This document shows positions 6,666 through 55,697 of a stretch of 59,834 nucleotides of DNA, piece after piece. The stretch lies in the NCBI GenBank assembly GCA_016867455.1, contig VGJJ01000002.1, positions 1 through 59,834 of the forward strand, given 5' to 3'. How positions within the stretch are numbered: position 1 is the first letter of the stretch; each line of letters starts with the position of its first letter. Source of the DNA: Candidatus Iainarchaeum sp. GTDB taxonomy: Archaea; Iainarchaeota; Iainarchaeia; Iainarchaeales; VGJJ01. The position numbers were made by a program, and so were the translations under genes. The notes beneath the pieces were generated by a model. The model saw only the letters and a program-made list of their open reading frames with translations. It did no database searches and was not told the origin of the DNA.

Positions 6666-6740
6666 TTACTCTTTTTTGCCATATTTATGCCCACTGCGTG
6701 CAACGATAAGACTCTTAAACGCCAAATTCGACTGCAAACC

Positions 6741-8494: not shown

Positions 8495-8861
8495 TTTGTT
8501 TCAATTCGTGGAAGATTTCTTCTTTTTTTCTTTCATCATGCGCGGGGGGAATTCCAAAAATAGTGACTCGTTTCAATTTACCCATTTTTTGCATTAATTT
8601 GAGCGTCATTCCCAAATCAAAATCGTGCAACGAATAGGAGGGGGAGGATTTGATCGCGTTCACATCCGTCCACACCATTACGCGAGGGATGTTGATGATT
8701 GTGTCAATGATGATGAGGTGTTCTTCCTCCGGAAAGTTTTCCGTGGGATCAATCTCCACAAAATGCAATGAGGGAAATGCTTCGCATAAACGAGGCAGTA
8801 ATTGGATGGGTAACGCGTCCACTTCTTCGAGGGGGTTTCCTAATACGTAGAGTCGCACCAT
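8454..8861 (-). CDS. hydrogenase maturation endopeptidase (HycI/HoxW/FrhD family)
   Basis: Start moved to ATG 8861 (MVRLYVLGNPLEEVDALPIQ...). Segments HLIIIDTI and SLHDFDL are typical of the family. Its 3' end overlaps the convergent large-subunit gene by 41 nt. Confidence 0.8.
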   Translation of the reverse strand: MVRLYVLGNPLEEVDALPIQLLPRLCEAFPSLHFVEIDPTENFPEEEHLIIIDTIINIPRVMVWTDVNAIKSSPSYSLHDFDLGMTLKLMQKMGKLKRVTIFGIPPAHDERKKEEIFHELKQTMSNSLLKNESHN

Positions 8862-8892
8862 ACCTGTTTTGTGCAGTATGACTAAAATAGTA

Positions 8893-8964
8893 TGCCTCGG
8901 GGGTGATTTGAACACCCGACCTCCGGGTTATGAATCCGGCGCTCTACCACTGAGCTACCAAGGC
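8893..8964 (-). tRNA. tRNA with CAU anticodon (elongator Met or Ile2)
   Basis: 72-nt cloverleaf: acceptor GCCTTGG/CCGAGGC, D-arm GCTC-AGTGGTA-GAGC, anticodon loop TTCATAA, T-arm GGGTG-TTCAAAT-CACCC. Confidence 0.9.
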
Positions 8965-8994
8965 GAACTTTTTAGAAAAAAGTTCGATCAAAAA
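8965..8994 (-). repeat. palindromic intergenic element, copy a
   Basis: On the minus strand it reads TTTTTGATCGAACTTTTTTCTAAAAAGTTC and ends directly at the tRNA 5' end. The arms GAACTTTTT/AAAAAGTTC are 9 bp. Confidence 0.8.
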
Positions 8995-9068
8995 TGGACT
9001 ACTTCGCAGGGTTTCCTTCGTCAACCCCGCAGTAGGCCTTTCTTACTAATTTCGCCCAATGAAGGCTT

Positions 9069-9185
9069 AAAAATGGGGCGATTTATTGACTGCAAATTCT
9101 TGTGAAAGACGTGGGATTGCGAAGCTATTCCCACTATATCGGGATCGAGGAACGAAACCCTCGAGGTTCAAAAATGGGGCGATTT
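9069..9185. repeat. 16-nt exact direct repeat AAAAATGGGGCGATTT (9069-9084 and 9170-9185)
   Basis: Two exact copies lie 101 bp apart. On the minus strand each reads AAATCGCCCCATTTTT(G/A)A. The proximal copy continues as TTTTTAAGCCTT, which also occurs upstream of tRNA-His. Confidence 0.7.
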
Positions 9186-9196
9186 GACCATTACAT

Positions 9197-10528
9197 TTAC
9201 CACGTGAAATAGGCTAGTATGGCGAGCAAAATGATTCCTGCGAGGGAGACTAATATTCCGCTCTTGAGTAAGTCTTTCGTGTGAATATACTTTGTTGAGT
9301 AAGCAATGGTGGTGGGTGGCGTTCCCATGGGTAGAATGAAATCCAAACTCACTCCTAGCGCGGTGGCGGTGACGAGGTTCGTCACGTTCACTCCCAAAAC
9401 GGTGGCAAGTGAGGCAATCACGGGGAGGAATACCGCGGATGCCGCGGTGTTGGAGATGAAGCTCGTTAATAGTACGCCCACCAGTCCTATTCCTCCTAGC
9501 ACGACTACGTAGGGTTGGTTTTCCCACACTGTTGAGAGTGTTTGGGCGAGGATAGTGGATAGTCCGCTGGTTTCAATCGCCATTCCTAATGCGATGCCTC
9601 CCCCAATGAGGATGAGGGAGTCCCATCCCATTTCTTTGAAATCATTTCCCTTGATGAGTCCAAGAATAGATAACAATACCACGGGCATGAGTGCGATTAC
9701 GCTGTTGGACACGCCATGAATGCTTTCCGTGATCCATAGTAATACGGTGAGCAAGAATATTCCGGCTACCATCCATTGTTCACGCGTAAAGGGTTGGTCG
9801 TGTTTTTTCATGATTATTTTGAATGGTTCAGGTCGGAAAACAAACAATAAAATCATCCACGTGACCAAAACCATGATCACAGTGAAAGGAAACGCGCGCA
9901 TGCCCCATTCGATAAAACCATACGATATTCCTTCATTCGTCAAGAATTTTTGGGCTAAAACATTGGGGGTGCTTCCGATGAGGGTGCCCATTCCTCCAAT
10001 CGTTGCTCCATAGGCAACGGCAATGACTATGGCTTTAGCAAATGTTGATTCTCCTTGTTTTCGATGATTCATTTTCAAAATGACTAATACGAGTGGCATG
10101 GCCAGTGCGGCCGCGGCCGAGTTGGCAATCCATAGTGAAATAGCCGCGGTCACGCTCAATGCGCCTAATACGAGTATGTTGGGAGAGTGGGCAAATTTTC
10201 CTAATAATTTGTGACTCAAATATTCGTCCAAGCGGTGTTTGTGCATGGCCACCGCGAGGGCAAATCCTCCCAATACGAGTACAACCACCTTGTCAAAGTA
10301 TGCCGGAAACACTTTTTCGGCGGGGTATGGAACCAATAGAATGAGCAGGAATCCTACTAACAATGCAGTAATGTGGAGTGGAATGATTTCACTAATCCAG
10401 AAAACCAGGGCAAAGAATGCAATGCTTAGCACCATTTGGGCGTGCGGGGGAAATGTAGGAGTGAGGGTGTGGAGTACATATGCTCCTCCAATGGCTATGA
10501 GTAAAATGAATAATCGTCGCAAGAGCAT
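9197..10528 (-). CDS. DASS/SLC13-type (ArsB/NhaD superfamily) anion transporter
   Basis: 443-aa polytopic protein with two hairpin-tip-like motifs, WIANSAAAALAMP and FISNTAASAVFLP. Confidence 0.7.
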   Translation of the reverse strand: MLLRRLFILLIAIGGAYVLHTLTPTFPPHAQMVLSIAFFALVFWISEIIPLHITALLVGFLLILLVPYPAEKVFPAYFDKVVVLVLGGFALAVAMHKHRLDEYLSHKLLGKFAHSPNILVLGALSVTAAISLWIANSAAAALAMPLVLVILKMNHRKQGESTFAKAIVIAVAYGATIGGMGTLIGSTPNVLAQKFLTNEGISYGFIEWGMRAFPFTVIMVLVTWMILLFVFRPEPFKIIMKKHDQPFTREQWMVAGIFLLTVLLWITESIHGVSNSVIALMPVVLLSILGLIKGNDFKEMGWDSLILIGGGIALGMAIETSGLSTILAQTLSTVWENQPYVVVLGGIGLVGVLLTSFISNTAASAVFLPVIASLATVLGVNVTNLVTATALGVSLDFILPMGTPPTTIAYSTKYIHTKDLLKSGILVSLAGIILLAILAYFTW

Positions 10529-11652: not shown

Positions 11653-11946
11653 TTTTGAAATCTCCTAATAGTGATTTTTTCACGAAGAAAAAATCTGTTA
11701 TGCTTTATGCGTTCTCGTATTTAAGGGTGTGCCTATTTTTGTGTTTTCGTTGAATAAAAAATAATAAAAAAAATAGTTTGAAAATAATTGTTGGTTTGAT
11801 TTTCCACGATGAACGAAGAAAATTAGAAAAAATTGAATTGGTTGAAAAAAATTAGGTAATGATTTGCAGGCTTTTTTAGTAGAAAAAAGTGGTGCCACTT
11901 GTTGGCACCACGAGGACGACCCGCCAGATGTCAATGGCGCGAAGAA

Positions 11947-15171: not shown

Positions 15172-15271
15172 CTAGCTCGCCAGTTTCGGCTGGCGGGTGC
15201 GATGGACTACAATGTGGGTTTTTCAAACCCACGTAGGCCTATCAGTATAGGAATAGGTTTTTGGGTGAAAG

Positions 15272-15300
15272 TTTTTGATCAAACTTTTCTCAAAAGTTTG
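15272..15300 (+). repeat. palindromic intergenic element, copy b
   Basis: TTTTTGATCAAACTTTTCTCAAAAGTTTG ends 1 nt before the tRNA-Arg 5' end. The arms CAAACTTTT/AAAAGTTTG are 9 bp. Confidence 0.85.
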
Positions 15301-15301
15301 T

Positions 15302-15375
15302 GCCTCTGTAGTTTAACCTGGATAGAATGCGAGCTTGCGGAGCTTGTGATCAGGGTTCAAATCCCTGCAGAGGCG
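15302..15375 (+). tRNA. tRNA-Arg (anticodon GCG)
   Basis: 74-nt cloverleaf: GCCTCTG/CAGAGGC, anticodon stem CGAGC/GCTTG with loop TTGCGGA, T-arm CAGGG-TTCAAAT-CCCTG. Confidence 0.9.
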
Positions 15376-15448
15376 CTAGAAAAAAAGAGAGGTATTTGTC
15401 CAACGATACCTCGACTTCGGTGCAGCCGGACGAAAACGGCTGTTCCCG

Positions 15449-18149: not shown

Positions 18150-20573
18150 TCACATGAACGAACTTAAACCTGTTTGTTTTCCCCCGCGTTCCAAGTCCGT
18201 GGAGTCAATTCCCAGTTCCGCAAATATTTTTTCCACCGCTGGGATGATTTGATTCTTCACGTAGTACTCGGCATCATAGTCTCCTTCTTTCACGAATTCG
18301 TCTAGTTCGGCGCGGTCGGAAATGCTTTTGCCATTTTTGGTGATGATGAATCCGAGCATTTGTCCCACAAAAATTTCTTTTCCTCTTTTTTGGGCTTTCA
18401 ATGCGGCTGAAACGTGGGGTGCCGTGGTGTGATAACTCTCGGGTTTGCGCTGCAATTGCGTGAGTATCACGAGTTCTTTTTTGGGAACGTTTCCGGAGCG
18501 TAACCGTTTGATGACATCCATCACGGCATCGTGTGCCTTGTTGGGAGTTCCATTCACGAGTATTTCGTGGAGAACTTTCTTTTGTGTTTCGCGCGCGATA
18601 ATGCTTACGTCCCTCCTCACGTATTCAAATCCAACAATCGTGAGTGCATTTTCGTTGTCCGCTAATGCGTATCTTTTTTTGGCCACGTGTCCTTCTTTCC
18701 GTGTTACAAATAGTCCCCGTTTGTAGAGTCCTTCGAATTCTAGTTCCATTCTTCCGGGTAATTTGGCATTGACTTTTTCGACGAATTTTTTGATATCATT
18801 TTCGGTTTTGTTTCTGGGAAGGAGTACGAACGCAGAGTCGGTGTCTCCGTATACGGGCGTGTATCCGTCTTCTTCCGCCCATTTGAGTGTTTGCCGGATG
18901 TAGTGTCTCGCCCACGCGGTGATGGCTTGTGCGGAGTCGCGGGAATACCATCTAAAGCGTGGATAGGCGAGCGTTCCGAAAAATGAATTCAAAACAATTT
19001 TGAGTGCTTGTTTTCGTGCTTTCAAAAACACTTGTTGGGGATCCTTCTTGGGGAGTGCGTCCATTTGTTTTTGTACCTCAATGCGTTGATCGAGAATTCG
19101 TTCGATTACACTGGTAAAGAGTCCTTTTTTTTGGGTGCAGAACCAGCTCCCATTGGGTGATTTGTTTTCTCCTTCTTTGCACACGTTGTGCGTGCAGTTC
19201 AATGCGTCCGGGGAGATGTTGTGCGATATCATGATGCTTGGATAGAGGGAGCGGAAGTCTAGCACCGCTAGGTTTTCGTGCAGTCCCGCAACGGGTTCTT
19301 TCACATACCCTCCTTCGATGGGGTTTTGCAACCGCCCTTCGACTTGTTCATCGGTGGGGGGATTTGGAAATAACACGTTTCGGGAAACGCTTTCGTGCAT
19401 GAGGGTAGTTTCCACGAGTTGAGACGCGGATGCCCGGTTCACGTCGAATAGTGTTAATCGCACGAGTCGGGATATTTCTAATAACAATGGTAAAAATTCG
19501 TCTCCTAATCGTTTGGTGTATTGGGCGTCGGTGAGATTGTATTTCGCAAGTTTGTCTAATCCTTTTTGGGTTTTCCATGTTTCCCATATTTGCGTGTGGT
19601 TGAGTGTCTTTTCTCCTTCATTGAATACGGCTTTCATCACGCTTTCTAAATCCAATCGCGGCGATTTGAAGAATTGGAATCGTGTTAAAAGTCGAGCGAG
19701 TTGGTACACGTCCACGTGTTGGATGCCGTGTAATCGTGCTTCGGATTCGTTTCCTTTTCCGGTGATGATGGCGTGTCCGAATCCGAAATCTATTTCCACG
19801 TGATTTTTTTTGCTTCGTTCGATGATGAATGGGAAATCAAATCGGTCCCCGTTGTAGGTGTACAATACATCGATGTCTGAAACGTTGCAGAATGTTCGGA
19901 ATCCTTCCAGCATTTTTTTTTCGTTCTCGCATGCTTGGGTAATTTTGTCCTCGTACGCGTTGGCCATGAATACTTTTTCTCCTGCACTGGTTGAGAGTGC
20001 GATGGAGATGATTTGGTCTTTCTCGGGTTGGGGTATTTTTCCGTTGCCGAATGTTTCAATGTCAAATGCGCCGGTGCGAAACGACGTGAATGATTCGTTA
20101 GTGAGTGTAATTTTTTTCACGTTTCCTTCATCATCGAGCGTGCATTCCACGTGTTGCGTGGGCGTGAGTTGTTTGTCTAAAATGTATCGTTTGGTATAGG
20201 GAATGTTGGCCTCCCTCAGGGTTTCGACAAAAGGGTATGCCTGTATTTTTTCGCGCGAGGGAACGAGTTGTCCAATCGTGGAGAATCCCATTTTGATGTA
20301 GGCTTTTCCTTCTTTCGTGACTTTTTCGACTAAAATGGGTTTGACTCCCCCGGGGAGGGTTTCATCCTTGAGTTGCTGGGTTATCTTTCCTACATCCGCG
20401 TTTTCGACTAATTGGATGTAAAAATAGGGGGGAAAATGGGGATCGGTTACTCGTTGGATAGGCCCTTTGCCCCCTTGCGTACGGATAAACAGGTCGATAA
20501 CGCTCTTTCCACCTATTTCCCGTGTTTGGACGTCGAGGAGGGGTCCTTTTATCACGTTTAATGAACGAGGCAT
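18150..20573 (-). CDS. polB: family B DNA polymerase
   Basis: 807 aa. Exo motifs FDIETF and YNGDRFDFPF, and polymerase motifs DFRSLYPSIM, KIVLNSFFG and YGDTDS. No intein-sized insertion was seen. Confidence 0.95.
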   Translation of the reverse strand: MPRSLNVIKGPLLDVQTREIGGKSVIDLFIRTQGGKGPIQRVTDPHFPPYFYIQLVENADVGKITQQLKDETLPGGVKPILVEKVTKEGKAYIKMGFSTIGQLVPSREKIQAYPFVETLREANIPYTKRYILDKQLTPTQHVECTLDDEGNVKKITLTNESFTSFRTGAFDIETFGNGKIPQPEKDQIISIALSTSAGEKVFMANAYEDKITQACENEKKMLEGFRTFCNVSDIDVLYTYNGDRFDFPFIIERSKKNHVEIDFGFGHAIITGKGNESEARLHGIQHVDVYQLARLLTRFQFFKSPRLDLESVMKAVFNEGEKTLNHTQIWETWKTQKGLDKLAKYNLTDAQYTKRLGDEFLPLLLEISRLVRLTLFDVNRASASQLVETTLMHESVSRNVLFPNPPTDEQVEGRLQNPIEGGYVKEPVAGLHENLAVLDFRSLYPSIMISHNISPDALNCTHNVCKEGENKSPNGSWFCTQKKGLFTSVIERILDQRIEVQKQMDALPKKDPQQVFLKARKQALKIVLNSFFGTLAYPRFRWYSRDSAQAITAWARHYIRQTLKWAEEDGYTPVYGDTDSAFVLLPRNKTENDIKKFVEKVNAKLPGRMELEFEGLYKRGLFVTRKEGHVAKKRYALADNENALTIVGFEYVRRDVSIIARETQKKVLHEILVNGTPNKAHDAVMDVIKRLRSGNVPKKELVILTQLQRKPESYHTTAPHVSAALKAQKRGKEIFVGQMLGFIITKNGKSISDRAELDEFVKEGDYDAEYYVKNQIIPAVEKIFAELGIDSTDLERGGKQTGLSSFM

Positions 20574-23291: not shown

Positions 23292-23420
23292 TTTTTTAGT
23301 AACTTTTCAAAGTAGTTTTTTGATTATCGTTTTTGATAAAACTTCATGGCAAACCAAAAAGGTTTGTCATGCCAGCAAACCATTGGTTTGCCTGGTTTCC
23401 ATAAGTTTGTTTGGCAGGGT

Positions 23421-23490
23421 ATTGATAAAACTTTTCTCAAAAGTTTTACTGGTGAACGTTTTTTGATCAAACTTTTTCCAAAAAAGTTTG
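23421..23490 (+). repeat. palindromic intergenic element, copies d1 and d2
   Basis: ATTGATAAAACTTTTCTCAAAAGTTTTAC (23421-23449) and GTTTTTTGATCAAACTTTTTCCAAAAAAGTTTG (23458-23490), located between convergent genes. Confidence 0.85.
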
Positions 23491-26281: not shown

Positions 26282-26302
26282 CCCTGATTGAGTATCCAGA
26301 CC

Positions 26303-29300
26303 ATGCGCTCCTTCACGCACAGTACTCCTTTGATGGGTGTCCTCCTCACGGGGCTTTTGTTCGTAGCAATGGCATATTCAGGGGTTGCTCAAGAAGTGGT
26401 TGAGACCGCTGCCGAAGTGGCGGATGCTATTTCATCAAGCGATATTGTGGTTGATTCGGTCTCTCCTGATTTTTCAGTGATTGCACCATTTGATGGGGAT
26501 GTTGTTTCGAATTCGCTGATGGTGATGATTCTTCCTGCATCACCGGATGCGATTACGCAGGCATACACCACCCTAACGTTTCGGGACCCGATTGATGGCA
26601 GTGATAAAAAATATCGGAATGATTTATCATCGGCTGATAATTGGACAACCGCATTTGATTCTACTCTCATCCCCAATGGAAAGGCACGCATTGCGATGCA
26701 CCTTTGTATTAATGTCGTGTGTGCGGACAAAGAAGTTGATGTGAGTATTGACAATACGCCCGCACCTGCATCATCAAACACGAATGAAGCGAATGCCGAT
26801 ATTTATTTTCCGGAAGTGAATGAGAAAGATCCTCTCTCCTCCGAGACGAATGATCCTGTTCCGGTTGAACCATCCGATACTGGCACCTCGACTTCCATTG
26901 ATCCTGCGCCTGTTGAACCGGTTCCTATTCCATTGGTTATTTTTACTCCTTCGAATGTTGCGGGGGCGTTTCTCATTTTTGATTCGAAGGGAGAATTGTC
27001 TGCCCGCACGTCGGGTGATTCGGTGGAGTTGCCCGTGGGAGAATATTCGGGTGAATTTGAATTTTTTAATCGATTAATCTCCAACATTAGTATTGGTTCA
27101 TTTTCTCTTGCTGAAAACGCGGTTGGAATTTCTTTTTTTGATGATGCGGTGACGCAGCGTTTTTCGATTGGGGGCAAATCATTCCAGCCGGTGGCGAGCA
27201 CGGGCATATCATTCGGCGTCAAGCATGATGGAGCGAGCATTGCGTGGGGAAACACTCCTGAGTCGCTGGACCTTATTTGGTGTACGAATTGGAATCGAAA
27301 CGCTTCCACATGTGATGATGGAGAAATCATCTCCAAGATTTCTGACAGTAAAGAAGTGATTATCAAAGATCGCGAGGCCGTTTTTGTTGTAGCCAAACCG
27401 CTGGGTGACACGAATCCGGGGGCGGGCGAGCTTCGATTGGTTGTTCCTTCCAACATTGGTGGTTTTTTTTCATGGACGGATGAAGTTGGAAATATTTTCT
27501 CCTCGCGCGGAGAGGCCGTCGAGTTGCCGCAAGCATCGTATGATGTGAACATGGAATTGTCTTCCTCGGCTATTTCGCAACTATTTTTCGATAACATGGT
27601 GCTTGATCACAATGGGACAATGGTGCAGGTTATTCCCATTCTCACTTCCGCGAGGGGAGTGCACATTACGACAGTGAATATTGATTATCCTTTTGAAAAT
27701 GGTTTTTTTACATTGGATCCGGATTTTAATGCGAGTAATATCCAGAAGTGTTCGTCGTGGGATCCGGTTGTTCAGATTTGTTCGGGTGAATGGAGTAATA
27801 CTGATTTTTCACTCGCGCGTGGTCTTACTGCTTACCAGTTTTTTCCGCGGAGTGATTCCGCAGAACCTTCTCCTCCGGATGTGTCAAACATTCCTCTCTC
27901 GGAGCGGCAGCAGCTCAAGAATTTGATTGAGCAGCTCAAAAAATTATTCAAGAATAGGCAATACTATATTTCAGATTTGGATCATTCCTCGTCGCCGGTT
28001 CTTTCGTCGTTGTTTAAGAAAATGGAGCTCTCCCTCGAATGCGGTGTTCCGGCAAAACCAACAATCTCGGATGCGGACCGAGTTCCGGAAGATAGCAACG
28101 CGGCAGCGGATGTGATCGTTCCATCACTTGAGGCATCGGTGGATGAATCGCCTTTCGCCACCAACGCAGTGGAATCCCCCGCGATTCTCGTGCAAGAGAC
28201 GAATGAAAACGCTTCTCCCGTTCAAGTGGATTTGCTCCCGGGAGAAAATCCATTAGAGAGTGCGTGGGAGGATGTTTTTCCAGAGAAGTTTAATGGCAAG
28301 CAAGAAGAAGGAATTCTCTCCTGCGACGGTGTCACATTGTTGAATGAGTTTAGGGATGTCTTAGATAGTGTGGATGATGAAAACACCACTTACTTGGGAG
28401 ATCTGGGCCCCTACACGAAGCAGACGCTCACGCTTTCTAATTTGAATTCGGTTCCCGTGACGCGCATGGTGAATGTTCGTTTCATTCTTCCTAATCCAAA
28501 GCTTGCTACTGAAAATAGGACCATGGAGCCTTTTTCGTTGTACCAGTTGATTAAGACGGAAGAGGTTGAGCTCGTTAAAGATGTGAACGTGGACGCGAAT
28601 ACCATGGTCACTGAAAAAGTGGTTCAAAATCATGAAGTGGAATTCATTGACTCGCAGGAGGAAGTGGATGGTTCGTATGATTGGGAGGATTATTGGCACG
28701 CGGGAGTATATCCGATTGGTCTCGTTCACCGTGCGAATAATCGAATGGTGTTGGACACACTCTTGACGATTTCGCTACTCCCGAATGAGACTAAAATTAT
28801 TGATCCTATTTTTGAGTTGGCTGAAACCCCTGCGTTTACGGCGGCGTGGGATGGCAACAGCAAATTTGATTTCATTGGTGGCGCGAGTGATATTAATGGA
28901 GTACTAATCCTCGACTTAGACAATAATGGCGTTCCTAATGACATGATTATCACGGCTCCCTTTGCGGACACGAATGGTAAGTTTGACAATGGTGTTGTTT
29001 ACGTGATTAAGGATTTCAATAGACAGACTGATATTAAGGGCTTGGGTAATCCGGATAATTTTTCTATTGCATTTGCCGCGCCATTCACGGCAGACATGTT
29101 GGGAAGAGGATACTTAGCGGCTATTCCGGGTTCAATCGGCGTTCAAGTGTACAACACGGATGGTAATGCGTATGCGAATGATTTGATTATTACGGCCACA
29201 CGCTCGGACGCGAATAACGCCGGAAAAACAGATGCGGGTGCGGTGTATTTGATTAAGGATGTTGATCGCAAAACGGGTTTTAGGAGTTTGTTGGATACAA

Positions 29301-32300
29301 CCAGTTTTGATGCCATGTGGACGGGTTCCAGCGCCTCCGACTCTATTGGTGGAACCAATGGTGGTAATGGAATCATTGTGGCTAATTTAGATGGAAATTC
29401 ATCCGCGAATGATTTGATTATTTCTGCCTATAACGCGCTTTCGGGTAAAGCAGGGAATGGTTCGGTGTACATGATTCTGGATATTAATCGTAAAGTAGGA
29501 AGATATGATTTGAATCACACGCAAAGCTTTAATGCGCGGTGGGATGGTAACGCGTTTGTCGCCACGGAAAACTTGGGAAGCACCAACAATAGTGGACAGG
29601 GCGTTCAAATAGTCAATATTGACAAGAATACGATTGCGAATGATTTGATGATTGTTTCGTATTTAGCGGATTATAATGGTAAAGCAGATTCGGGAAATAT
29701 TTACATTATTAAAGATATTAATCGCCGGTCCGGAATTCTTCCATTTTCGAGCACGGCTAATTTTGATGTCATGGTCACGGGCGGAGGATTAGCGGCGGGA
29801 ACGGGTGCCCAATTAGGGAGCACGAATGGTTGGGGTAATGCTGCGCGATTCTATGATATGAATGGTGATGGTTTCGTGAATGATTTGTTGTTGACGAATT
29901 ATCAGGCTGATTTTAACGGAAAGACTAACAATGGTGCAATCTGGTTGATTAGTGATATTAATTCCAAGTCCGGCGTGATTGATTTGAACACCACGAGGGG
30001 GGGACTGTATAATGCACTGTACTATGGCGGAGCCCTCAACGACCAAATTGGCGCATACAATACCGCGTATACGCTTCCAGGAAATCCGGGCGAAACCGTT
30101 TTAGTGGTTAATTTGGATGGAAATGCCACGGCAAATGATTTGATTATCATCGGCGATGCGGTTGATTCGAATGGACTTGCCAACGCGGGGGCGGTGTACT
30201 TAATCAGGGATATCAACGCCAAACCGGGAACATTTGATTTGAATAATGGAAACGTGTTTAATGCTCGTTGGTTGGGTGCCGTCGCACAGGATTTTTTGGG
30301 GTATAATGATTCCATCAACACGGGCGTTCAAGTCGTGAATATTGACAACAATTTGTACGCCAATGACTTGTTGATTGGTTCTACTTTCACGGATATTAAT
30401 GGTAAAACGAGCTCGGGCGGAGTGTATTTGATTCGTGACATTAATGCATTAAATCCCGGGCTGTACGGTAATCGCCGCTACCTTGGAAATTTGGATCATT
30501 TTAATGCTCGCTGGAATGGCGGCGCGGGTGATTTGCTTTCAGACAATAACTTGAGTGGTCCTTCAATTATGGTCATTAATGCCGATGGTAACGCGTACGC
30601 GAATGACTTGTTGATTTCCGCGAGTTCGGCGGATGTGAATGGTTGGACGGACAATGGTGCCGTGTATTTAGTGTTGGACGTGGATCGAAATGGTTTAACG
30701 GGCGTTTTGTATGATTTCAATTCCATTGCCCGCGGAACGTACAAAACTCGTTTTAGTGGGAGAAATAATTTTGACCAGTTAGGGGATACGAATCGCGGCG
30801 GTCCGGCAATGATCGTGGCGAATATCAATAACACGGCTTCCGCGAATGATTTGATTTTGGTTAGTCCAAAGGTTGACACGCATAAACGCGATGCTGGAGC
30901 AGTAACGTTGTTTATGGATATTAATTCGTTGGACTTGAATGTGGGTATTGATAACAACCTCATGCTCTATCACCAGTGGAGGGGCGATTTGAATTCGGAT
31001 GCGGTGGGTGATGGTAACGTTCAGAACACGAGTGTATATTTGGTCAACACTGATTTGAATACGCGTGCAAATGATTTGATTATTTTATCCGCCAATAAGG
31101 ATGCGAATGGGTTGATTAACAATGGAGCGGTATTCTTTATCAAAGACATTTCGACCGCGCGAGAGGGCCGGGGTTCGTTGACGTTTGTGTTAAACCAACC
31201 AGGTTTTGATGGTAATTCGGTTCGCGTGGGGGGCGATATTAATGTTTCGGCTCGCGCCACGTGTATTCTTGCTAACTGCGGAATTGTATCCAGCTCCGTT
31301 CAATACTGTAAGAACGACCTCAACACGATTACGTGTGCAAGTTTTATTGACATGAATAATGATAGTGCGAGTCCGCTGTATGTTACTCAAGGCAGTGTTA
31401 CCGTCATGAGCGGACCGATTACAATAGATCAAGCATTTGATGTTAATTGGACGATTCGCGGAAGTGATGTGAATAGTTATATGATTCGCGTCATTTCTCG
31501 CGGTGCCAATGTTACAAACGCCACTTCTACTGAAAGACGATTAGTTGTCGAGCCTGTAAATTCATCTGATTTGCAATTGAATTACACATTTTCGGCAAGG
31601 CTTTACGGTTTGGTTAATGATACGATTGGTTACACTAATTTCAGCCGCGACGGGGTGAACATAGTTAATGTGGATAACGGTTCGTATGCCAATGATTTGA
31701 TTATTACGGCTCCCTTCGCGGATGTAAATGGTAAGGCGGACAGTGGGGCTATTTATTTGCTCAAGAATATTGACCAAAACACAGGATTAATCGACTTGAA
31801 TCATTTTACGCAGAGTTTTAGTGCCCGTTGGAATGGGGGCGCAGCCAATGATCGTATTGGAGACATGAATGGTTCCGGCCAAGGATATCGTTTGGCCGAC
31901 ATGGATGGAAACGGTTACACGAATGATTTGTTGATTGGTGCACCGTTTGCGGATGCGAATCAGAAAACCAATAATGGGGCGCTTTATTTGATTAAAGATA
32001 TTGACAAAAAGGGCGGTGCGTTTGATTTGAATATTCCCACGAATTCTTCGCTTCGTTACACGGGAAATATTACGGGTGACGCCCTTGGTTTTGTGATGGG
32101 TGGCGGAAGCGGAATGAGTTTGTCCAACATTGATGGGAATGGGGTGTTGAATGATGTATTAGTTGGTGCGACGTATGCGGATGCTAATGGTAAAGTGGAC
32201 ACGGGACGTATTTTCTTGCTGCGTGACATTAATCGTTTTGATGGATTGCGGGATTTGAATAACACTACTTTCTTCAGCGCCGCATGGAATGGAGGAGTGG

Positions 32301-34354
32301 TGCGTGAAATACTCCCTCATAATTCGCGTGGTTTGCCATCATTTTCGGATGCGATGCAATTGGTAAACGTCGACCAAAATGCGTCGGCAAATGATTTGCT
32401 CATTACGGTTTCGCAGGCGGACATGAATGCTAAATCCCGCGTGGGAAAAATTTATTTGATAAAAGACATCAACGCGAAAGCGGGATCATTTGATTTGAAT
32501 AATACTAATTTTTTCAATTATGCGTGGAATGGTCCGATGGCCGGTGATGAAATTGGTTTCACCTCATTAAATGGTCAAGGGGTTCAATTGTTTGACTTGG
32601 ATGGGAATGGGTACGCGAATGATTTGTTGATTACGGCATCATTTTCTGATTTGCGAAAAAGTAATGGGGGTGCCGTGTATATGATACTCGATATTGATCG
32701 GAACACGGGTGGTATTCGTGATCTCAATCAACCGTCATTCTTTAATGCGGCGTGGTCAGCGGTGAACGCGTCCGACCTGATTGGTGACACGAGCGGGAGC
32801 GGCAATGCGGTTCAAATTGGAAACCTGGATGGCAATGCGAACGCGAATGATTTGGTGTTGAACGTGCCGCTGGAAGACTATAATAGTGGAACCAACAACG
32901 GCGCCGTGTACGTGATTCTGGACATCAACAAGAAAGTGGGTCAGCAGGATTTGAATATTCGTACGAATTGGAATGCTAAATTTTATGGGTTGACTGGAAA
33001 TTTGCTCGGGGACACGGAAAACGTTACATACACGTTCTCGGATGCTAATGCGAAAGGTGTTCTCATTACGAACGTGGACGGGAATACTTTTTCCAATGAC
33101 TTGTTGATTGGCAGCGCGCTGCATGATTTCAATAATAAAACGAATGTGGGTGGAGTCATTTTGATTCGCGACGCGAATAGTGTGGCAGAGCAGCGTCTCA
33201 TTTTGAATGATTTGAATTATTCCGCGGGTTGGAGCGGCGGGGTGGCGTCGGATTATTTGGGGGACACGAATCGTTCAGGCCCTGGTTTCCAAGTTGGCAA
33301 TTTTGACGGGGGATCATACGCCAATGATTTGGTTATTTCGGCACCGAGTGCGGATGTGAATAACAAGAATGATAATGGTGCCGTTTACGTGATTAAAAAT
33401 ATTGATACGTTCCGCGGGCAACGAGACTTGATTGCTCCTGTAAAATATGATGCCCGCTACGTTGGACAGGGTTCCCTTGATTATTTAGGTGAAACGGTTT
33501 TCGGCGGCTTTGGTGTTCAGATTGTTAACGTAGATGGCAACGCGTACAGTAATGATCTTATCATTACTGGCGCACGTGCGGATGCGGGTTTTATTAGAGA
33601 TTCGGGCGCCACTTATTTAGTGAATGAAATTCAGAATGATGTGAATGATAATGATTTTGCCAATAATAATAATTATACGTGGAGATGGCGCGCATCCTCT
33701 ACCAATGCGTATTTAGGCCAGACGTTCAGCAATGCCCGCGGTGTTCAAGTCACTAATATTGATAATGGTTCCACGACCAATGATTTGATTGTCATTGCCG
33801 CGTATGATGATGTGAATGGCCGCACCAACTCGGGAGCGGTTACCCTCATTGAGAATATTTCATCGGCATCCACGCTGGATTACACGTTTGCCGTGCTTCT
33901 TCCTTCGTCTGGTTGCACGAATGGAAAGGGAAATATTACTGGGGGAACCACGTGCCAGCGGGCGTGGATTGAACCGTTGGTTGATTTGAATGGCACTACC
34001 ACTGAGACAGGATTAGTCCCGGAAGGACAGTCAACAATAGATGCTACGTCTCCCTTCTTTCGGATTGATAATCAGTCCACGAGTTCGACGAGTTTCACTA
34101 TTTTGTTGGATTTGAATCAAGCATATCCTGCAGAATACACCCTAAAAGCAAGTCAATTATTTTCGGGTTGGGAATCCACCTGTTCTGGGACCCCGTCAAC
34201 CGGTTGTATTACCTTAACCACCACTCCCACGAGTGTGGGCACCGCCACGTATTCGGCGGGAACCAATGATTTGAGCATCTTTTTCTTCGGTGATTTCAGC
34301 AGTGCGAACGCTGGACGAGTTGATCGTAATGTGGATACGAATTATACTCCGTGA
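26303..34354 (+). CDS. giant secreted repeat protein (FG-GAP / integrin-alpha-like Ca-binding beta-propeller blades)
   Basis: Uninterrupted frame of ~2,683 aa from ATG 26303 (the ORF track gives TTG 26288). Signal-peptide-like MRSFTHSTPLMGVLLTGLLFVAMAYSGVAQE. There are 20 repeats of consensus N.DGN..ANDL[IL]I.A..AD.NGK...GAVYLI.DI. No C-terminal TM. Confidence 0.9.
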   Translation: MRSFTHSTPLMGVLLTGLLFVAMAYSGVAQEVVETAAEVADAISSSDIVVDSVSPDFSVIAPFDGDVVSNSLMVMILPASPDAITQAYTTLTFRDPIDGSDKKYRNDLSSADNWTTAFDSTLIPNGKARIAMHLCINVVCADKEVDVSIDNTPAPASSNTNEANADIYFPEVNEKDPLSSETNDPVPVEPSDTGTSTSIDPAPVEPVPIPLVIFTPSNVAGAFLIFDSKGELSARTSGDSVELPVGEYSGEFEFFNRLISNISIGSFSLAENAVGISFFDDAVTQRFSIGGKSFQPVASTGISFGVKHDGASIAWGNTPESLDLIWCTNWNRNASTCDDGEIISKISDSKEVIIKDREAVFVVAKPLGDTNPGAGELRLVVPSNIGGFFSWTDEVGNIFSSRGEAVELPQASYDVNMELSSSAISQLFFDNMVLDHNGTMVQVIPILTSARGVHITTVNIDYPFENGFFTLDPDFNASNIQKCSSWDPVVQICSGEWSNTDFSLARGLTAYQFFPRSDSAEPSPPDVSNIPLSERQQLKNLIEQLKKLFKNRQYYISDLDHSSSPVLSSLFKKMELSLECGVPAKPTISDADRVPEDSNAAADVIVPSLEASVDESPFATNAVESPAILVQETNENASPVQVDLLPGENPLESAWEDVFPEKFNGKQEEGILSCDGVTLLNEFRDVLDSVDDENTTYLGDLGPYTKQTLTLSNLNSVPVTRMVNVRFILPNPKLATENRTMEPFSLYQLIKTEEVELVKDVNVDANTMVTEKVVQNHEVEFIDSQEEVDGSYDWEDYWHAGVYPIGLVHRANNRMVLDTLLTISLLPNETKIIDPIFELAETPAFTAAWDGNSKFDFIGGASDINGVLILDLDNNGVPNDMIITAPFADTNGKFDNGVVYVIKDFNRQTDIKGLGNPDNFSIAFAAPFTADMLGRGYLAAIPGSIGVQVYNTDGNAYANDLIITATRSDANNAGKTDAGAVYLIKDVDRKTGFRSLLDTTSFDAMWTGSSASDSIGGTNGGNGIIVANLDGNSSANDLIISAYNALSGKAGNGSVYMILDINRKVGRYDLNHTQSFNARWDGNAFVATENLGSTNNSGQGVQIVNIDKNTIANDLMIVSYLADYNGKADSGNIYIIKDINRRSGILPFSSTANFDVMVTGGGLAAGTGAQLGSTNGWGNAARFYDMNGDGFVNDLLLTNYQADFNGKTNNGAIWLISDINSKSGVIDLNTTRGGLYNALYYGGALNDQIGAYNTAYTLPGNPGETVLVVNLDGNATANDLIIIGDAVDSNGLANAGAVYLIRDINAKPGTFDLNNGNVFNARWLGAVAQDFLGYNDSINTGVQVVNIDNNLYANDLLIGSTFTDINGKTSSGGVYLIRDINALNPGLYGNRRYLGNLDHFNARWNGGAGDLLSDNNLSGPSIMVINADGNAYANDLLISASSADVNGWTDNGAVYLVLDVDRNGLTGVLYDFNSIARGTYKTRFSGRNNFDQLGDTNRGGPAMIVANINNTASANDLILVSPKVDTHKRDAGAVTLFMDINSLDLNVGIDNNLMLYHQWRGDLNSDAVGDGNVQNTSVYLVNTDLNTRANDLIILSANKDANGLINNGAVFFIKDISTAREGRGSLTFVLNQPGFDGNSVRVGGDINVSARATCILANCGIVSSSVQYCKNDLNTITCASFIDMNNDSASPLYVTQGSVTVMSGPITIDQAFDVNWTIRGSDVNSYMIRVISRGANVTNATSTERRLVVEPVNSSDLQLNYTFSARLYGLVNDTIGYTNFSRDGVNIVNVDNGSYANDLIITAPFADVNGKADSGAIYLLKNIDQNTGLIDLNHFTQSFSARWNGGAANDRIGDMNGSGQGYRLADMDGNGYTNDLLIGAPFADANQKTNNGALYLIKDIDKKGGAFDLNIPTNSSLRYTGNITGDALGFVMGGGSGMSLSNIDGNGVLNDVLVGATYADANGKVDTGRIFLLRDINRFDGLRDLNNTTFFSAAWNGGVVREILPHNSRGLPSFSDAMQLVNVDQNASANDLLITVSQADMNAKSRVGKIYLIKDINAKAGSFDLNNTNFFNYAWNGPMAGDEIGFTSLNGQGVQLFDLDGNGYANDLLITASFSDLRKSNGGAVYMILDIDRNTGGIRDLNQPSFFNAAWSAVNASDLIGDTSGSGNAVQIGNLDGNANANDLVLNVPLEDYNSGTNNGAVYVILDINKKVGQQDLNIRTNWNAKFYGLTGNLLGDTENVTYTFSDANAKGVLITNVDGNTFSNDLLIGSALHDFNNKTNVGGVILIRDANSVAEQRLILNDLNYSAGWSGGVASDYLGDTNRSGPGFQVGNFDGGSYANDLVISAPSADVNNKNDNGAVYVIKNIDTFRGQRDLIAPVKYDARYVGQGSLDYLGETVFGGFGVQIVNVDGNAYSNDLIITGARADAGFIRDSGATYLVNEIQNDVNDNDFANNNNYTWRWRASSTNAYLGQTFSNARGVQVTNIDNGSTTNDLIVIAAYDDVNGRTNSGAVTLIENISSASTLDYTFAVLLPSSGCTNGKGNITGGTTCQRAWIEPLVDLNGTTTETGLVPEGQSTIDATSPFFRIDNQSTSSTSFTILLDLNQAYPAEYTLKASQLFSGWESTCSGTPSTGCITLTTTPTSVGTATYSAGTNDLSIFFFGDFSSANAGRVDRNVDTNYTP
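28840..33865 (+). repeat. in-frame coding repeat lattice: 10 + 10 units of ~77 aa (~230 nt)
   Basis: Run 1 spans ~28840-31150 and run 2 ~31570-33865. They are separated by a Cys-containing, non-repeat insert of ~140 aa. Confidence 0.85.
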
Positions 34355-37547: not shown

Positions 37548-37607
37548 GTTTTTGATCAAACTTTTTTTGAAAAAGTTTGTTTTGATTAAACTTTTCTCAA
37601 AAGTTTA
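37548..37607 (+). repeat. palindromic intergenic element, tandem copies c1 and c2
   Basis: GTTTTTGATCAAACTTTTTTTGAAAAAGTTTG (37548-37579) and TTTTGATTAAACTTTTCTCAAAAGTTTA (37580-37607). c2 abuts the tRNA-Leu 3' end. Confidence 0.85.
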
Positions 37608-37691
37608 TGCAGGAGACAGGATTCGAACCTGTGAAGGCACTAAGCCACGGGATCTTAAGTCCCGCCCCTTTGACCGCTCGGGAACTCCTGC
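37608..37691 (-). tRNA. tRNA-Leu (anticodon UAA), class II
   Basis: 84 nt: acceptor GCAGGAG/CTCCTGC, anticodon stem CGGGA/TCCCG with loop CTTAAGA, long variable arm, T-arm ACAGG-TTCGAAT-CCTGT. Confidence 0.92.
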
Positions 37692-38518: not shown

Positions 38519-38530
38519 GGTTTCTCCTCC

Positions 38531-38557
38531 AACTTTTGATAAACGTTTGATCAAAAA
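38531..38557 (-). repeat. palindromic intergenic element, copy e (degenerate)
   Basis: The minus strand reads TTTTTGATCAAACGTTTATCAAAAGTT, 12 nt before the rpoD ATG. Its T-run is shared with the preceding hairpin. Confidence 0.65.
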
Positions 38558-38573
38558 CCCTCTTGGGGGTTTT
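38554..38573 (-). terminator. hairpin AAAACCC-CCAAGA-GGGTTTT plus T-run after rps11
   Basis: 7-bp stem followed by TTTTT on the minus strand, 14 nt after the rps11 stop. Confidence 0.4.
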
Positions 38574-38586
38574 AGTCAATCAATCA

Positions 38587-38982
38587 TCAAACTTTTTTGC
38601 TCCTGTGTTTTTTCTTCTTTCGTGTTCCATCGTGCGGTGTCGGCGTGACGTTTTCGATGGAGATGATTCTCATTCCGTTGCGCGTCAGGCTGCGGATGGC
38701 GGCTTCTGCACCTTGTCCGGGGTTGCGGGGTCGAATTCCACCTTTGGCGCGTACGCGCACATGCACCGTGGAGATTCCTTTTTCGCGTGCTTTCTGCGCG
38801 ATCGTCTCGGCGATTTTCATGGCGGCGTAGGGGCTGCCTTCTTTGTGTTGTGTTTTCACCACGACTCCACCCGAGCATTTGGCGAGGGTTTCTGCTCCCG
38901 TCAAATCCGTTAAGAGGATAATCGTATTGTTGTGCGTCGCGAAAATGTGCACCAATCCTACTTTGTTTTCTTTGTCAGCCAT
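38587..38982 (-). CDS. rps11: 30S ribosomal protein uS11
   Basis: 131 aa; GLVHIFATHNNTIILLTD...GPGAEAAIRSL-like segments. Confidence 0.93.
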   Translation of the reverse strand: MADKENKVGLVHIFATHNNTIILLTDLTGAETLAKCSGGVVVKTQHKEGSPYAAMKIAETIAQKAREKGISTVHVRVRAKGGIRPRNPGQGAEAAIRSLTRNGMRIISIENVTPTPHDGTRKKKKHRSKKV

Positions 38983-49529: not shown

Positions 49530-49903
49530 GCGGTTTCCTCCGATTTATTTTTTTCCTTTAGTTGAGCGTGTTTTGTTTCTTGATTCATTTCTTCGTGCAC
49601 CACATCTGATCGCGAGTGTCCCACGATTTCGGTGACGATGAATGCTTTCGTCTTGCTGATTTTTCGTGTTTCTCCTATTTTGACGATGTCGTTTTCTTTA
49701 GCGTTAATGTAATCCGGATTGTGTGCTCGGACTTTGGAGCGGACTTTCTTGTAACGTTCAAATTTGGAGTTGTATACCACAATCTCGCGCATCACGGTGA
49801 CTGTTTTGGGGGCTTTGGCACTCACGACGCGTCCAACGAATTCGTTTCCGCGCACAGGGTATTCGGGTTGGTGAACCGTACTTGTTTTCGTGTTTTTAGG
49901 CAT
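49526..49903 (-). CDS. rps17: 30S ribosomal protein uS17
   Basis: FVGRVVSAKAPKTVTVMREIVVYNSKFERYKKVRSKVRAHNP. Confidence 0.92.
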   Translation of the reverse strand: MPKNTKTSTVHQPEYPVRGNEFVGRVVSAKAPKTVTVMREIVVYNSKFERYKKVRSKVRAHNPDYINAKENDIVKIGETRKISKTKAFIVTEIVGHSRSDVVHEEMNQETKHAQLKEKNKSEETA

Positions 49904-50195
49904 AGTATTTTCCCCCGTTCTTTAATCGTTCAATCGGATTTCCCACGAGTTCGCTTCCTTCAATTTCGACGACTTCTCCGTCTAAGTCGAATGCGAACGT
50001 GCTCTCATTTTTGGGCAGTGTTTTTTCCATGTTATTCATATCTATCACAAATGTTCGTTGAGTTTCATTAATTATTTTTCCAATCAATCCTTTTTTGCTC
50101 GCGTCTACACTCTCAACCACTCTCATGGTGAGTCCGATGAGTTCGTGGATGGGAAGCACTTCCCTGTTGAGCGTGTAGTGGTTTGTTTTAATCAT
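49896..50195 (-). CDS. rnp1: RNase P protein component 1 (Rpp29/Pop4)
   Basis: ELIGLTMRVVESVDASKKGLIGKIINETQRTFVI. Conserved operon position between uL29/SUI1 and uS17. Confidence 0.85.
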   Translation of the reverse strand: MIKTNHYTLNREVLPIHELIGLTMRVVESVDASKKGLIGKIINETQRTFVIDMNNMEKTLPKNESTFAFDLDGEVVEIEGSELVGNPIERLKNGGKYYA

Positions 50196-55537: not shown

Positions 55538-55573
55538 CAAACTTTTGAAAAAGTTTGATCAAAATCGATCAAA
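55538..55573 (-). repeat. palindromic intergenic element, copy f
   Basis: The minus strand reads TTTGATCGATTTTGATCAAACTTTTTCAAAAGTTTG. It lies between a TATA-like GCTTTATATAGC (55627-55638) and the rpl3 ATG (55461). Confidence 0.85.
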
Positions 55574-55697
55574 CCCTTCGTAGTCGAGCAGTCTACCTTC
55601 CGATACTACTAAATTCCTCAAAGAAAGCTATATAAAGCAACCGTACAACCCCTATCGAATATAACCTCTTGAATTGGCAAAATGAGGGGTTTTATCC

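Follow-up and report, generated by a model that had tools for sequence, protein, structure and literature searches.

A polar palindrome of about 30 nt recurs at gene boundaries in a 59,834-nt stretch of contig VGJJ01000002.1 (GCA_016867455.1) from Candidatus Iainarchaeum sp., which we call the window, and the same element is found in other archaeal phyla, in tRNA introns, in giant viruses and virophages, and in some Clostridia. It carries a conserved tail on one side only, its arms covary, it meets tRNAs and coding sequences with the foot that lacks the tail, and it is not conserved at orthologous sites among relatives. Read from the sequence, this combination suggests a portable boundary between transcription units that would act at the DNA level, as a terminator joined to a promoter. 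We favor this reading tentatively, judging its chance to be a little short of even. To our knowledge, a specific, covarying and polar palindrome common to archaeal phyla, tRNA introns, giant viruses and virophages has not been described.

Eight extragenic copies in one archaeal contig

The host is a Diapherotrites (DPANN) archaeon; homologues of its RpoD and HisRS carry the names Candidatus Diapherotrites or Iainarchaeum. The original prediction, made from the letters of the window alone, had listed eight copies with positions and strands, and all eight are there (copies 1 to 8 in Table 1). As it had also claimed, none of the eight lies inside a coding sequence (CDS), in a window whose noncoding share is 6.7%; the copies are spread over 6 separate intergenic regions. 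Chance is a poor explanation for the strict palindrome CAAACTTTT-N3-AAAAGTTTG, which at up to 2 mismatches has 4 matches in the window against 0.00 expected from 100 shuffles, and the 15-mer AAAAGTTTGATCAAA, covering arm and box, has 21 matches at up to 3 mismatches against 6.4 expected. When the window is scanned for any T4-loop-A4 hairpin whose 5-nt outer arms pair fully, seven sites come up: copies 1–6 and 8, every one of them intergenic.

A polar unit with covarying arms

We call a copy forward when it is read from its TTGAT tail and reverse when it is read from the other foot. The unit of ~30 nt consists of T(4-5)-GAT, Y-R-AAC-T(4-8), a short loop and A(4-6)-GTT-Y-R, and the arms of the palindrome measure 9–10 bp. 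This arm length agrees with what had been described, although the palindrome is not perfect in every copy, copy 7 being imperfect; nor does the proposed self-complementary TTGATCAA box occur throughout, since TTGATT, TTGATA and TTGATCG variants exist. The tail stands on one side only, and the T-run of the stem is longer than its A-run. Among the matches listed, a scope that applies to the counts of archaeal copies here and below, the 5' T-run is at least 4 long in 83 of 88 copies, the T-run of the stem is 4–8 long and the A-run mostly 4–5; on the opposite strand the T-run is 4–7. The loop adds to the polarity, being pyrimidine-rich on the tail strand in archaea (121 versus 67, p = 1e-4), in viral copies (143 versus 73) and in bacterial ones (46 versus 13).

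Because the outer pairs of the stem covary beyond the permutation expectation, stem pairing is under selection. The search pattern left the last two bases of the arm free, and both outer pairs are Watson-Crick in 35 of 43 unique archaeal copies against 15.7 expected (permutation, p < 5e-5). A relaxed scan finds every Watson-Crick combination at the outermost pair (C-G 24, T-A 13, A-T 6 and G-C 3), and whole arms differ with compensation, as AAAC/GTTT, GAAC/GTTC, AACC/GGTT, AAGC/GCTT and GAAAC/GTTTC. By contrast, the GATC core, once proposed as a methylation site, is not conserved: 23 unique exact-pattern archaeal copies have TTGATC against 20 with TTGATT, copy 3 of the window has TTGATA, and GATT, GATA or GATG stands in place of GATC in about half of archaeal copies.

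The RNA hairpin that had been inferred is weak. Predicted RNA folds are plain, uninterrupted stem-loops of only –2.6 to –7.8 kcal/mol, most of them scoring z-values of –1 to –2, and the stem mismatches (7 G-T, 9 A-C and 18 other) show no wobble bias on either strand. At the gathering threshold, Rfam finds only tRNAs and one 5S rRNA in the window and 12 loci, with no family for the element, and at relaxed thresholds it has no match in 8850–9250. A scan of the window for bacterial-type promoters and terminators flagged no copy, as expected for stems made of A/T only. A full-text literature search with sequence strings gave chance primer matches only, and a plasmid database gave weak intergenic matches of 29–34 nt in plasmids of the Bacillus cereus group (E-values 0.01–0.6).

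One end of the element meets genes and tRNAs

The placement of the copies in the window had largely been described correctly. Copy 1 overlaps the 5' end of tRNA-Met by 1 nt and copy 2 stops 1 nt short of tRNA-Arg; copy 6 abuts the 3' end of tRNA-Leu; copy 7 lies ~12 nt before the rpoD ATG, its T-run fused to the hairpin CCCCCAAGAGGG that follows rps11; copies 3 and 4 lie between convergent genes, which are themselves conserved; and copy 8 is found ~65 nt downstream of a separate, canonical TATA box, TTTATATA. The two copies placed ahead of rpl18e are indeed there, but they are the same two copies that follow tRNA-Leu.

What had been missed is the TATA-like position of TTTTTGAT before tRNA-Met and tRNA-Arg. 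With the transcription start taken to be the mature tRNA end or the ATG, TTTTTGAT spans –30 to –23 of both tRNAs, an A/T-rich 8-bp box centered ~26–27 bp upstream of the assumed start. Ordinary genes here are leaderless, with a TATA-like 8-mer that ends at –21 to –25 from the ATG in 11 of 13 examined, and position 6 is a G in two of these boxes, TTTAAGAA and TTTAAGTT, just as in TTTTTGAT. At these two tRNAs TTTTTGAT thus occupies the position of the genome's ordinary TATA boxes. The sequence before the box is purine-rich in copy 2 (GTGAAAG), copy 7 (AAGAGGG), copy 8 (CGAAGGG) and a copy of the relative L128 (GAGGAAAGG), where it resembles the ..AGG/..GGA of ordinary promoters; copy 1 has GTAGTCCA there, and copies 4–6 are pyrimidine-rich. 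The same forward geometry recurs independently at tRNA-Leu of L128 (1–2 nt), at tRNA-Ala of a Micrarchaeota genome (L027, 2 nt) and at leaderless ATGs in L020 (–1) and L069 (0).

Across archaea, ~15 of ~75 copies have the foot without the tail no more than 3 nt from the start of a same-strand feature or the end of an opposite-strand one; the tail side is that close in ~2. The starts are tRNA 5' ends (window, L128 and L027) and leaderless ATGs (L020 and L069); the ends are tRNA 3' ends (window, L070, L075 and L102) and stop codons inside the TAAAC arm (L015, L045, L066, L082 and L091). Counted by RNA end, the hairpin foot is 0–3 nt from five tRNA 5' ends, four tRNA 3' ends and at least eight 5' splice sites. 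At least eight copies lie in tRNA introns (L009, L014, L022, L027, L056, L065, L026 twice, and L117), all of them reverse and beginning 0–2 nt downstream of the 5' splice site, and in 7 of 8 the T-run is only T4. Within the intron the element forms an internal stem, and pairing with the anticodon region falls to the 3' part of the intron. One Woesearchaeota tRNA (L026 89–190, and a tRNA at 6515–6637 on the minus strand) appears to have two introns with the element in each, and a tRNA-Arg in L014 (4152–4339) has a 115-nt intron with three tandem hairpin units.

Copies that lie 0–3 nt after tRNA and CDS ends carry T-runs of at least 4 on the sense strand, and the T-run of the element is in a number of cases common with an upstream G+C hairpin. 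A gene abuts the same end of the DNA regardless of the gene's own direction, whereas the RNA tails of the two orientations would be complementary and not identical, which suggests that the boundary logic lies, most simply, at the DNA level. The earlier idea of a processing or insulator signal flanking tRNAs therefore comes close in its geometry to an insulator, while the logic looks unlike RNA processing. Only 2 of the 6 tRNAs in the window have the element at their 5' end, and 4 of 6 are without it.

Gain and loss among relatives

L001 belongs to the same genome, matches the window at 100% identity and carries no comparative information; the informative relatives are L002–L005 (86% DNA identity), L125–L128 (RpoD 87–63%) and L129–L131 (HisRS 85–74%). 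A check of related genomes, which had been proposed, finds the motif in them. The element is not conserved at orthologous positions, and most of the relatives' orthologous spacers are without it. Between S11 and rpoD, L127 and L128 have 12–18 nt and no copy, L125 and L126 have a reverse copy directly after the S11 stop, L002 has a remnant, and the window alone has a forward copy (copy 7). The tRNA-His/tRNA-Arg spacer is 47–49 nt, free of T-runs and without the element in L129–L131; in the window it is 129 nt long, with three T5 runs and copy 2. Between tRNA-Leu and rpl18e, L126 and L127 have 24–30 A-rich nt without the element, from which it follows that the two genes were co-transcribed ancestrally, and the window has 118 nt with two reverse copies, 5 and 6. 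In L128, three tandem forward copies end 1–2 nt before tRNA-Leu, and the ancestral tRNA-Leu TATA, CCTTTTAACCG, has been displaced to ~210 nt upstream, with five T5-6 runs in between.

Downstream of tRNA-Arg, L129 departs from L130 in an ~85-nt segment that combines two G+C hairpins with a T7 run and the element. This difference and that between the window and L002 look like segment replacements without target-site duplication. The convergent spacer between the 199/201-aa and 137/134-aa genes is the one conserved site, with tandem copies of the same orientation in the window and L128. Doublets are direct tandems (copies 3–4 and 5–6; L021, L072, L083 and L128), and density ranges from 0 copies per 20 kb in L127 to 6 per 20 kb in L128 and 8 per 60 kb in the window.

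Other hairpin modules recur at tRNA 3' ends, in the window at 11877–11946 (minus strand) and 15173–15230 (plus strand) and in L129 downstream of tRNA-Arg, giving these regions the look of a mosaic of the bacterial interspersed mosaic element (BIME) type; among the modules are GCGCCA..TGGCGGGTCG and GTGGTGCCAACAAGYGGCACCAC followed by T6-7. Different palindromes of T-run and A-run, GGGGTTTTTTGC-GAA-GCAAAAAAGGCC and TTTTCCCGAGGCTTTT-TTC-AAAAGGCTCG, take the place of the element in L129 and L130, just upstream of the 5' ends of tRNA-Met and tRNA-His. The last codons of rps11 in the window (AAA AAA GTT TGA) and the TGATTGAT that follows look like a decayed copy fused to the CDS, and the same is seen at the end of rps11 in the 86%-identical relative (L002–L005).

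Occurrence in archaea, viruses and bacteria

A scan of GTDB representative genomes with the pattern TTGATYRAACTTTTN{1,7}AAAAGTT gave at least 119 loci (L006–L124), about half of them archaeal among the matches listed. Carriers include Methanosarcinales, Methanocellales, Methanomicrobiales, ANME-1, Methanobrevibacter, Thermococcus, Hydrothermarchaeota and Altiarchaeota, as well as Woese-, Pace-, Nano-, Micr-, Aenigm- and Iainarchaeota. In Methanosarcina sp. MSH10X1 the element sits in five identical 83-bp tandem units, and other Methanosarcinales metagenome-assembled genomes (MAGs) have tandem units of ~68 nt with a GCCCTTCGGGT hairpin; together these arrays come from L088 (3919–4278), L105, L011, L050, L089, L090, L097, L104 and L106.

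The same pattern has 110 loci (L132–L241) with 140 copies in IMG/VR, mostly on contigs of 22–35% G+C that often hold several copies each. Arm and tail are both specific, because control patterns of the same composition give far fewer IMG/VR loci: permuting the arms leaves 6, and scrambling the tail leaves 13. Major capsid proteins of nucleocytoplasmic large DNA viruses (NCLDVs) are encoded on L194 and L154, and a Sputnik-type virophage capsid protein on L136. The abutment pattern of the archaeal copies repeats in the viral ones: 129 of 140 lie outside open reading frames (ORFs), the foot without the tail is at –3 to +7 from an opposite-strand stop in 17 of 54 cases and at –1 to +9 from a same-strand ATG in 10 of 61, and no start lies less than 26 nt from the tail.

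Bacterial matches are repeat families in Oscillospiraceae and related Clostridia (for example L025, L058, L074 and L080, Oscillospiraceae/Eubacteriales), in an Aminicenantes MAG (for example L023, L028 and L086) and in Cloacimonadota. The bacterial version is three-armed, AAAAGTT-TTGATCAAAC-TTTTT-CAAAAGTTTG, is followed by a mosaic of different G+C-rich hairpins, and has no Rfam match. We rejected a CRISPR leader or array for the Clostridia copies; what lies downstream is this mosaic of differing hairpins and not a repeat-spacer array.

A stop and restart at the DNA level?

If the element is a terminator joined to a promoter, RNA polymerase arriving tail-first would meet U4-5, then 8 nt, then U4-8, an arrangement characteristic of efficient termination in archaea by way of oligo-U and aCPSF1; TTTTTGAT would next serve as a TATA-like box, and transcription would restart ~23 nt on, at the far foot of the palindrome. 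This would yield tRNA-Met and tRNA-Arg with no leader or almost none and an rpoD transcript with a short leader, and it would give the rpl3 operon a second start. In reverse, the polymerase would meet a single shorter U-tract (U4-5) that begins 5 nt after the 3' end of the abutting gene or tRNA, and the element would be a leaky terminator. The cassette itself comes and goes, duplicates and is reshuffled quickly, in the manner of bacterial repetitive extragenic palindromic sequences (REPs) and BIMEs. The bidirectional terminator suggested earlier fits this scheme in part: there are T-runs on both strands, which give two U-tracts tail-first and one in reverse.

In Methanococcus, an efficient aCPSF1 binding site takes at least two U4-tracts, and more tracts give more termination (PMC8716108). 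Archaeal RNA polymerase stops at oligo-T, with T5 minimal in vitro and an upstream hairpin dispensable (PMC2253867), and in Nanoarchaeum equitans a promoter 26–27 nt upstream of every tRNA leads to leaderless tRNAs (PMC10100707). A leaky reverse reading would explain why copies are reverse in the examined operon-internal orthologous spacers and in tRNA introns. Copies that entered ancestrally co-transcribed pairs are in fact reverse, at S11-rpoD in L125 and L126 and at tRNA-Leu-rpl18e in the window. Likewise, a single U-tract in reverse would explain why forward copies stand far from the upstream gene and tight against the downstream one. Also in favor are upstream promoters that look displaced or blocked, that of tRNA-Leu in L128 by its T-runs and tandem copies and, in the window, by the three T5 runs between tRNA-His and tRNA-Arg, together with the TATA-like position of TTTTTGAT, the pyrimidine bias of the loop, the conserved convergent spacer and the abutment of the tail-less foot.

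Several observations weigh against a stop and restart. TTTTTGAT is not a canonical TATA box, and copy 1 shows no obvious TFB recognition element (BRE). Copies 1, 2 and 8 already have canonical promoters 65–200 nt upstream, and the RNase P/MRP subunit p29 (Pfam PF01868, E = 8e-20) is encoded at 49896–50195 on the minus strand, between SUI1 and rps17 in the ribosomal-protein operon, so that read-through followed by RNase P processing could suffice. If all copies fired, copies 3–6 would send antisense RNA into tRNA-Leu and the 137-aa gene. A promoter or a U-tract terminator needs no stem, yet the arms covary strongly, and neither function accounts for the pairing; nor would a purely archaeal signal predict the exact motif in giant viruses and Clostridia. 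The Methanosarcina tandem arrays of 3–5 copies resemble a satellite or a stack of terminators more than they do promoters, and gene starts 9–12 nt beyond the tail (L015, L021, L054, L072 and L101) fit a central, symmetric TATA better.

Two further ideas were rejected. Life without RNase P does not apply to this organism, as p29 is encoded in the window, and a split-tRNA arrangement, in which the element would combine a terminator for a 5' half with a promoter for a 3' half, is contradicted by a distance from element to exon 2 that varies from 10 to more than 70 nt and by introns that keep normal anticodon-pairing 3' parts.

Alternative explanations

Alternatively, the element may be a selfish palindrome without a host function, either REP/BIME-like or related to IS200/IS605, that is copied by a hairpin-recognizing enzyme such as an HUH/Y1 transposase, and its placement would then reflect tolerated insertions; we see this as a serious possibility, though one with the odds clearly against it. 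Presence and absence that differ at orthologous sites, the wide range of density, the tandem copies, half-copies and mosaics with other hairpin modules, and the occurrence of the motif in archaea, Clostridia and giant viruses would all be expected, as would stem mismatches without the wobble bias of an RNA strand. REPs (GTAG plus hairpin) and IS200/IS605 ends, moreover, are likewise built of covarying arms behind a conserved single-stranded 5' tail, and TTGAT is the target of ISDra2. Yet conservation extends into the T-run before TTGAT, so that a target site alone does not describe TTGAT; the tandems are direct and not the inverted pairs typical of REPINs; the polymorphic sites look like segment replacements that lack target-site duplications; and the sequence is near-identical across phyla, unlike species-specific REP families. 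A check for a RAYT or transposase-like gene, which had been proposed, found no HUH/Y1 ORF with an HxH...Y motif in ~240 loci, by a crude regular expression applied to genome pieces of 8–20 kb only. Spread alone also fails to predict the strand-asymmetric loop or the fixed TATA-like distance to tRNA 5' ends. Of the REP/MITE-like repeat that had been suggested, the gain and loss in spacers, tandems, fragments and hairpin mosaics hold up; a miniature inverted-repeat transposable element (MITE) does not, the unit being ~30 bp without target-site duplication.

An unlikely alternative is a symmetric BRE-TATA-BRE promoter firing in both directions, with TTTT-N-AAAA as the TATA box, the AAAC/GTTT arms as BREs, and starts ~25 nt to either side of the center. 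The arrangement AAA-C-TTTTnnnAAAA-G-TTT mirrors the AAA-n3-TTTAAA-n3-TTT of Pyrococcus furiosus, a bidirectional motif with paired start sites 49–50 bp apart (PMC6640164). Besides the starts 9–12 nt beyond the tail, which lack a Shine-Dalgarno sequence, others lie 10–14 nt beyond the opposite foot (L045, L047, L090, L116 and rpoD of the window). Such a promoter would, however, start ~14 nt inside tRNA-Met, tRNA-Arg, tRNA-Leu of L128 and tRNA-Ala of L027; the center of its box is the variable loop; exact complementarity of the arms is unnecessary for BRE function; and tandem arrays and intron copies are left unexplained.

We consider it quite unlikely that the element works as an RNA hairpin, guiding or insulating cleavage at tRNA 5' ends, 3' ends and intron junctions or stabilizing mRNA 3' ends. 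The closeness of the foot to three kinds of RNA end, the covarying arms and the reverse copies directly after stop codons, which resemble 3'-end hairpins, would fit such a role. Against it stand hairpins that are weak, with z-scores mostly above –2, and that lack G-U wobble bias on either strand, and a tail that is UUUUUGAU in one orientation and AUCAAAAA in the other, which a single RNA-binding factor cannot both read. In addition, three enzymes (RNase P, RNase Z and the splicing endonuclease) act at the three kinds of site, there is no bulge-helix-bulge, and most tRNAs of the window, like the relatives' orthologues, are without the element.

Very improbable, finally, is an operator for a dimeric factor that coregulates translation-apparatus genes, with or without GATC methylation: the palindrome, the classic archaeal repressor position of forward copies between a TATA-like box and the gene start, and the several copies flanking tRNA, ribosomal-protein and RNA polymerase genes would suit it, but arms that vary with compensation are not expected from a sequence-specific dimer, the GATC is often replaced, copies occur after unrelated genes, in convergent spacers, in tRNA introns, in viruses and in bacteria, and the relatives' orthologous translation-gene spacers are without the element.

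Implications

If transcription does stop and restart at the element, DNA modules of 30 bp would have rewired operons in a streamlined DPANN genome, splitting tRNA-His from tRNA-Arg, tRNA-Leu from rpl18e and rps11 from rpoD, and its tRNAs would be a second, independent case of transcription from the first base. Conservation of a tail and a paired stem across archaeal phyla, with reuse in giant viruses, virophages and Clostridia, is unusual for promoters or terminators and points to a common recognition factor or a common mobilizing mechanism. More broadly, although we think it fairly unlikely, the hairpin cassette could be a cross-domain, portable gene-boundary module of archaea, giant viruses, virophages and some Clostridia, either read by machinery of the TBP/TFB type or spread by a hairpin-specific enzyme. 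Were the TBP/TFB reading true, leaderless tRNAs would arise independently of RNase P although the organism has kept that enzyme. Either way, Archaea would gain their first described REP-like family, whose members colonize tRNA introns. In practice, the motif is a cheap marker of transcription-unit boundaries for the annotation of DPANN and methanogen MAGs and a candidate compact terminator/promoter part for archaeal genetics.

Features of the window

Table 1. Copies of the element, their remnants and adjoining features in the window
Feature	Position	Strand	Remarks
Copy 1	8964..8994	-	TTTTTGAT-CGAACTTTTTT-CT-AAAAAGTTCG; final G is base +1 of tRNA-Met
Copy 2	15272..15300	+	TTTTTGAT-CAAACTTTT-CTC-AAAAGTTTG; ends 1 nt before tRNA-Arg
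Two decayed half-copies	23314..23345 (approx.)	+	Tail and left arm only: TTTTTTGATTATC, TTTTTGATAAAACTT
Copy 3	23421..23449	+	Tail ATTGAT, arms AAAAC/GTTTT; convergent spacer
Copy 4	23458..23490	+	Tail-less foot 2 nt from stop codon of opposite-strand 137-aa gene
Copy 5	37548..37579	+	Tandem with copy 6; on the minus (gene) strand, between tRNA-Leu and rpl18e
Copy 6	37580..37607	+	TTGATT variant; tail-less foot 0 nt from tRNA-Leu 3' end
Copy 7	38529..38557	-	Degenerate: CAAACGTTT / AAAAGTTGG; then GGAGG and rpoD ATG at 38518
G+C hairpin CCCCCAAGAGGG	38558..38569	-	T-run is that of copy 7; resembles intrinsic terminator after rps11
Decayed right arm plus tail, AAAAGTTTGATGATT	38582..38596	-	Overlaps rps11 stop codon
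Copy 8	55538..55573	-	Preceded by extra partial tail TTTGATCGA; 76 nt upstream of rpl3 ATG
Canonical TATA box TTTATATA	55629..55636	-	Upstream of copy 8; context, outside the repeat
tRNA-Met (CAT)	8893..8964	-	5' end abutted by copy 1
tRNA-Arg (GCG)	15302..15376	+	5' end abutted by copy 2
tRNA-Leu (TAA)	37608..37691	-	3' end abutted by copy 6

A promoter-like box, AAATCGCCCCATTTTT(G/A)A, occurs twice upstream of tRNA-Met, at ~9181 and ~9080 on the minus strand, and its proximal version is kept ~100 nt upstream of tRNA-Met in L131. The ~70-nt spacer holds a conserved hairpin, has a similar sequence before tRNA-Glu (82–150) and no Rfam match, and could be a small RNA or a structured leader. Elsewhere in the window, 2231–8915 holds hypC/D/E/F-like genes, a gene like that of a NiFe-hydrogenase large subunit and a maturation protease (identified by N-terminal sequence only), and 26288–34354 on the plus strand is an ORF of 2688 aa with an N-terminal signal or transmembrane-like segment, whose true ATG is probably at 26303. 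The PolB orthologue in L131 (2923–6606) has an intein (Pfam Intein_splicing), which PolB of the window (18150–20573) lacks.

Comparison with known systems

The closest parallel for the tRNA-proximal copies is the set of tRNA promoters in N. equitans. Both have an A/T-rich 8-mer centered ~26–27 nt upstream of the first tRNA base and a predicted RNA start at a G after a pyrimidine. The box of the element is TTTTTGAT, however, and not TTTAWA; it stands before 2 of 6 tRNAs only, in an organism that keeps an RNase P subunit, and the element also occurs after genes and in introns. Unlike in the archaeal core promoter generally, a conserved, covarying palindrome fills the entire distance between TATA-like box and predicted start.

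With archaeal oligo-U terminators the element has in common two tracts of U4 or more within ~20 nt on the tail strand, a single tract on the opposite strand, a place directly after tRNA or CDS 3' ends and in convergent spacers, and a T-run that is sometimes common to an upstream G+C hairpin. Known terminators of this kind conserve nothing beyond their U-tracts and do not depend on a stem, whereas TTGAT and YRAAC/GTTYR are conserved across phyla. The bidirectional BRE-TATA-BRE promoters of Thermococcales (PMC6640164) resemble it in their symmetric AAA, T/A-rich core and TTT, and some genes near the element do start ~25 nt from its center; it differs in its loop-interrupted core, polar tail and exactly complementary arms, and the tRNA-proximal copies misfit the spacing of a central TATA.

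The NCLDV and virophage copies are intergenic (129 of 140) and lie directly after stops or before ATGs, which likens them to the hairpin-rule 3'-end signals of giant viruses and to the promoter and terminator motifs that giant viruses and virophages have in common. Hairpin-rule palindromes are gene-specific in sequence. The element, by contrast, is one specific sequence that is reused many times and also occurs in archaea. The IS200/IS605 family is common in archaea and Clostridia, and relatives of TnpB occur in giant viruses. As at IS200/IS605 ends, TTGAT stands directly 5' of a hairpin, but here the hairpin abuts TTGAT itself, the T-run before it is conserved, the unit is only ~30 bp, and it is a single hairpin with no second end and no TnpA/TnpB or transposase ORFs found nearby. 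Nor does it resemble a bulge-helix-bulge, with its two 3-nt bulges and 4-bp helix, being a plain stem without bulges, or a MITE, which measures 50–500 bp (L129/L130 and window/L002 were the pairs that showed no target-site duplication).

In its turnover, the element stands nearest to REPs and BIMEs. Like them, it is an imperfect palindrome of 25–35 nt with a conserved single-stranded 5' tail, strictly extragenic and multicopy, often intercistronic or at 3' ends, assembled into mosaics of modules and turned over quickly between relatives. Its tail is T(4-5)GAT rather than GTAG, and scrambling that tail cuts the viral loci from 110 to 13; its doublets are direct tandems and not the inverted pairs of REPINs, with no RAYT found in the crude screen of ~240 loci; and its hosts include archaea and eukaryotic viruses, among which it is near-identical across phyla and not species-specific. 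Taken together, these likenesses suggest an element that works like an archaeal U-tract terminator fused to a TATA-type promoter and evolves like a bacterial REP or BIME.

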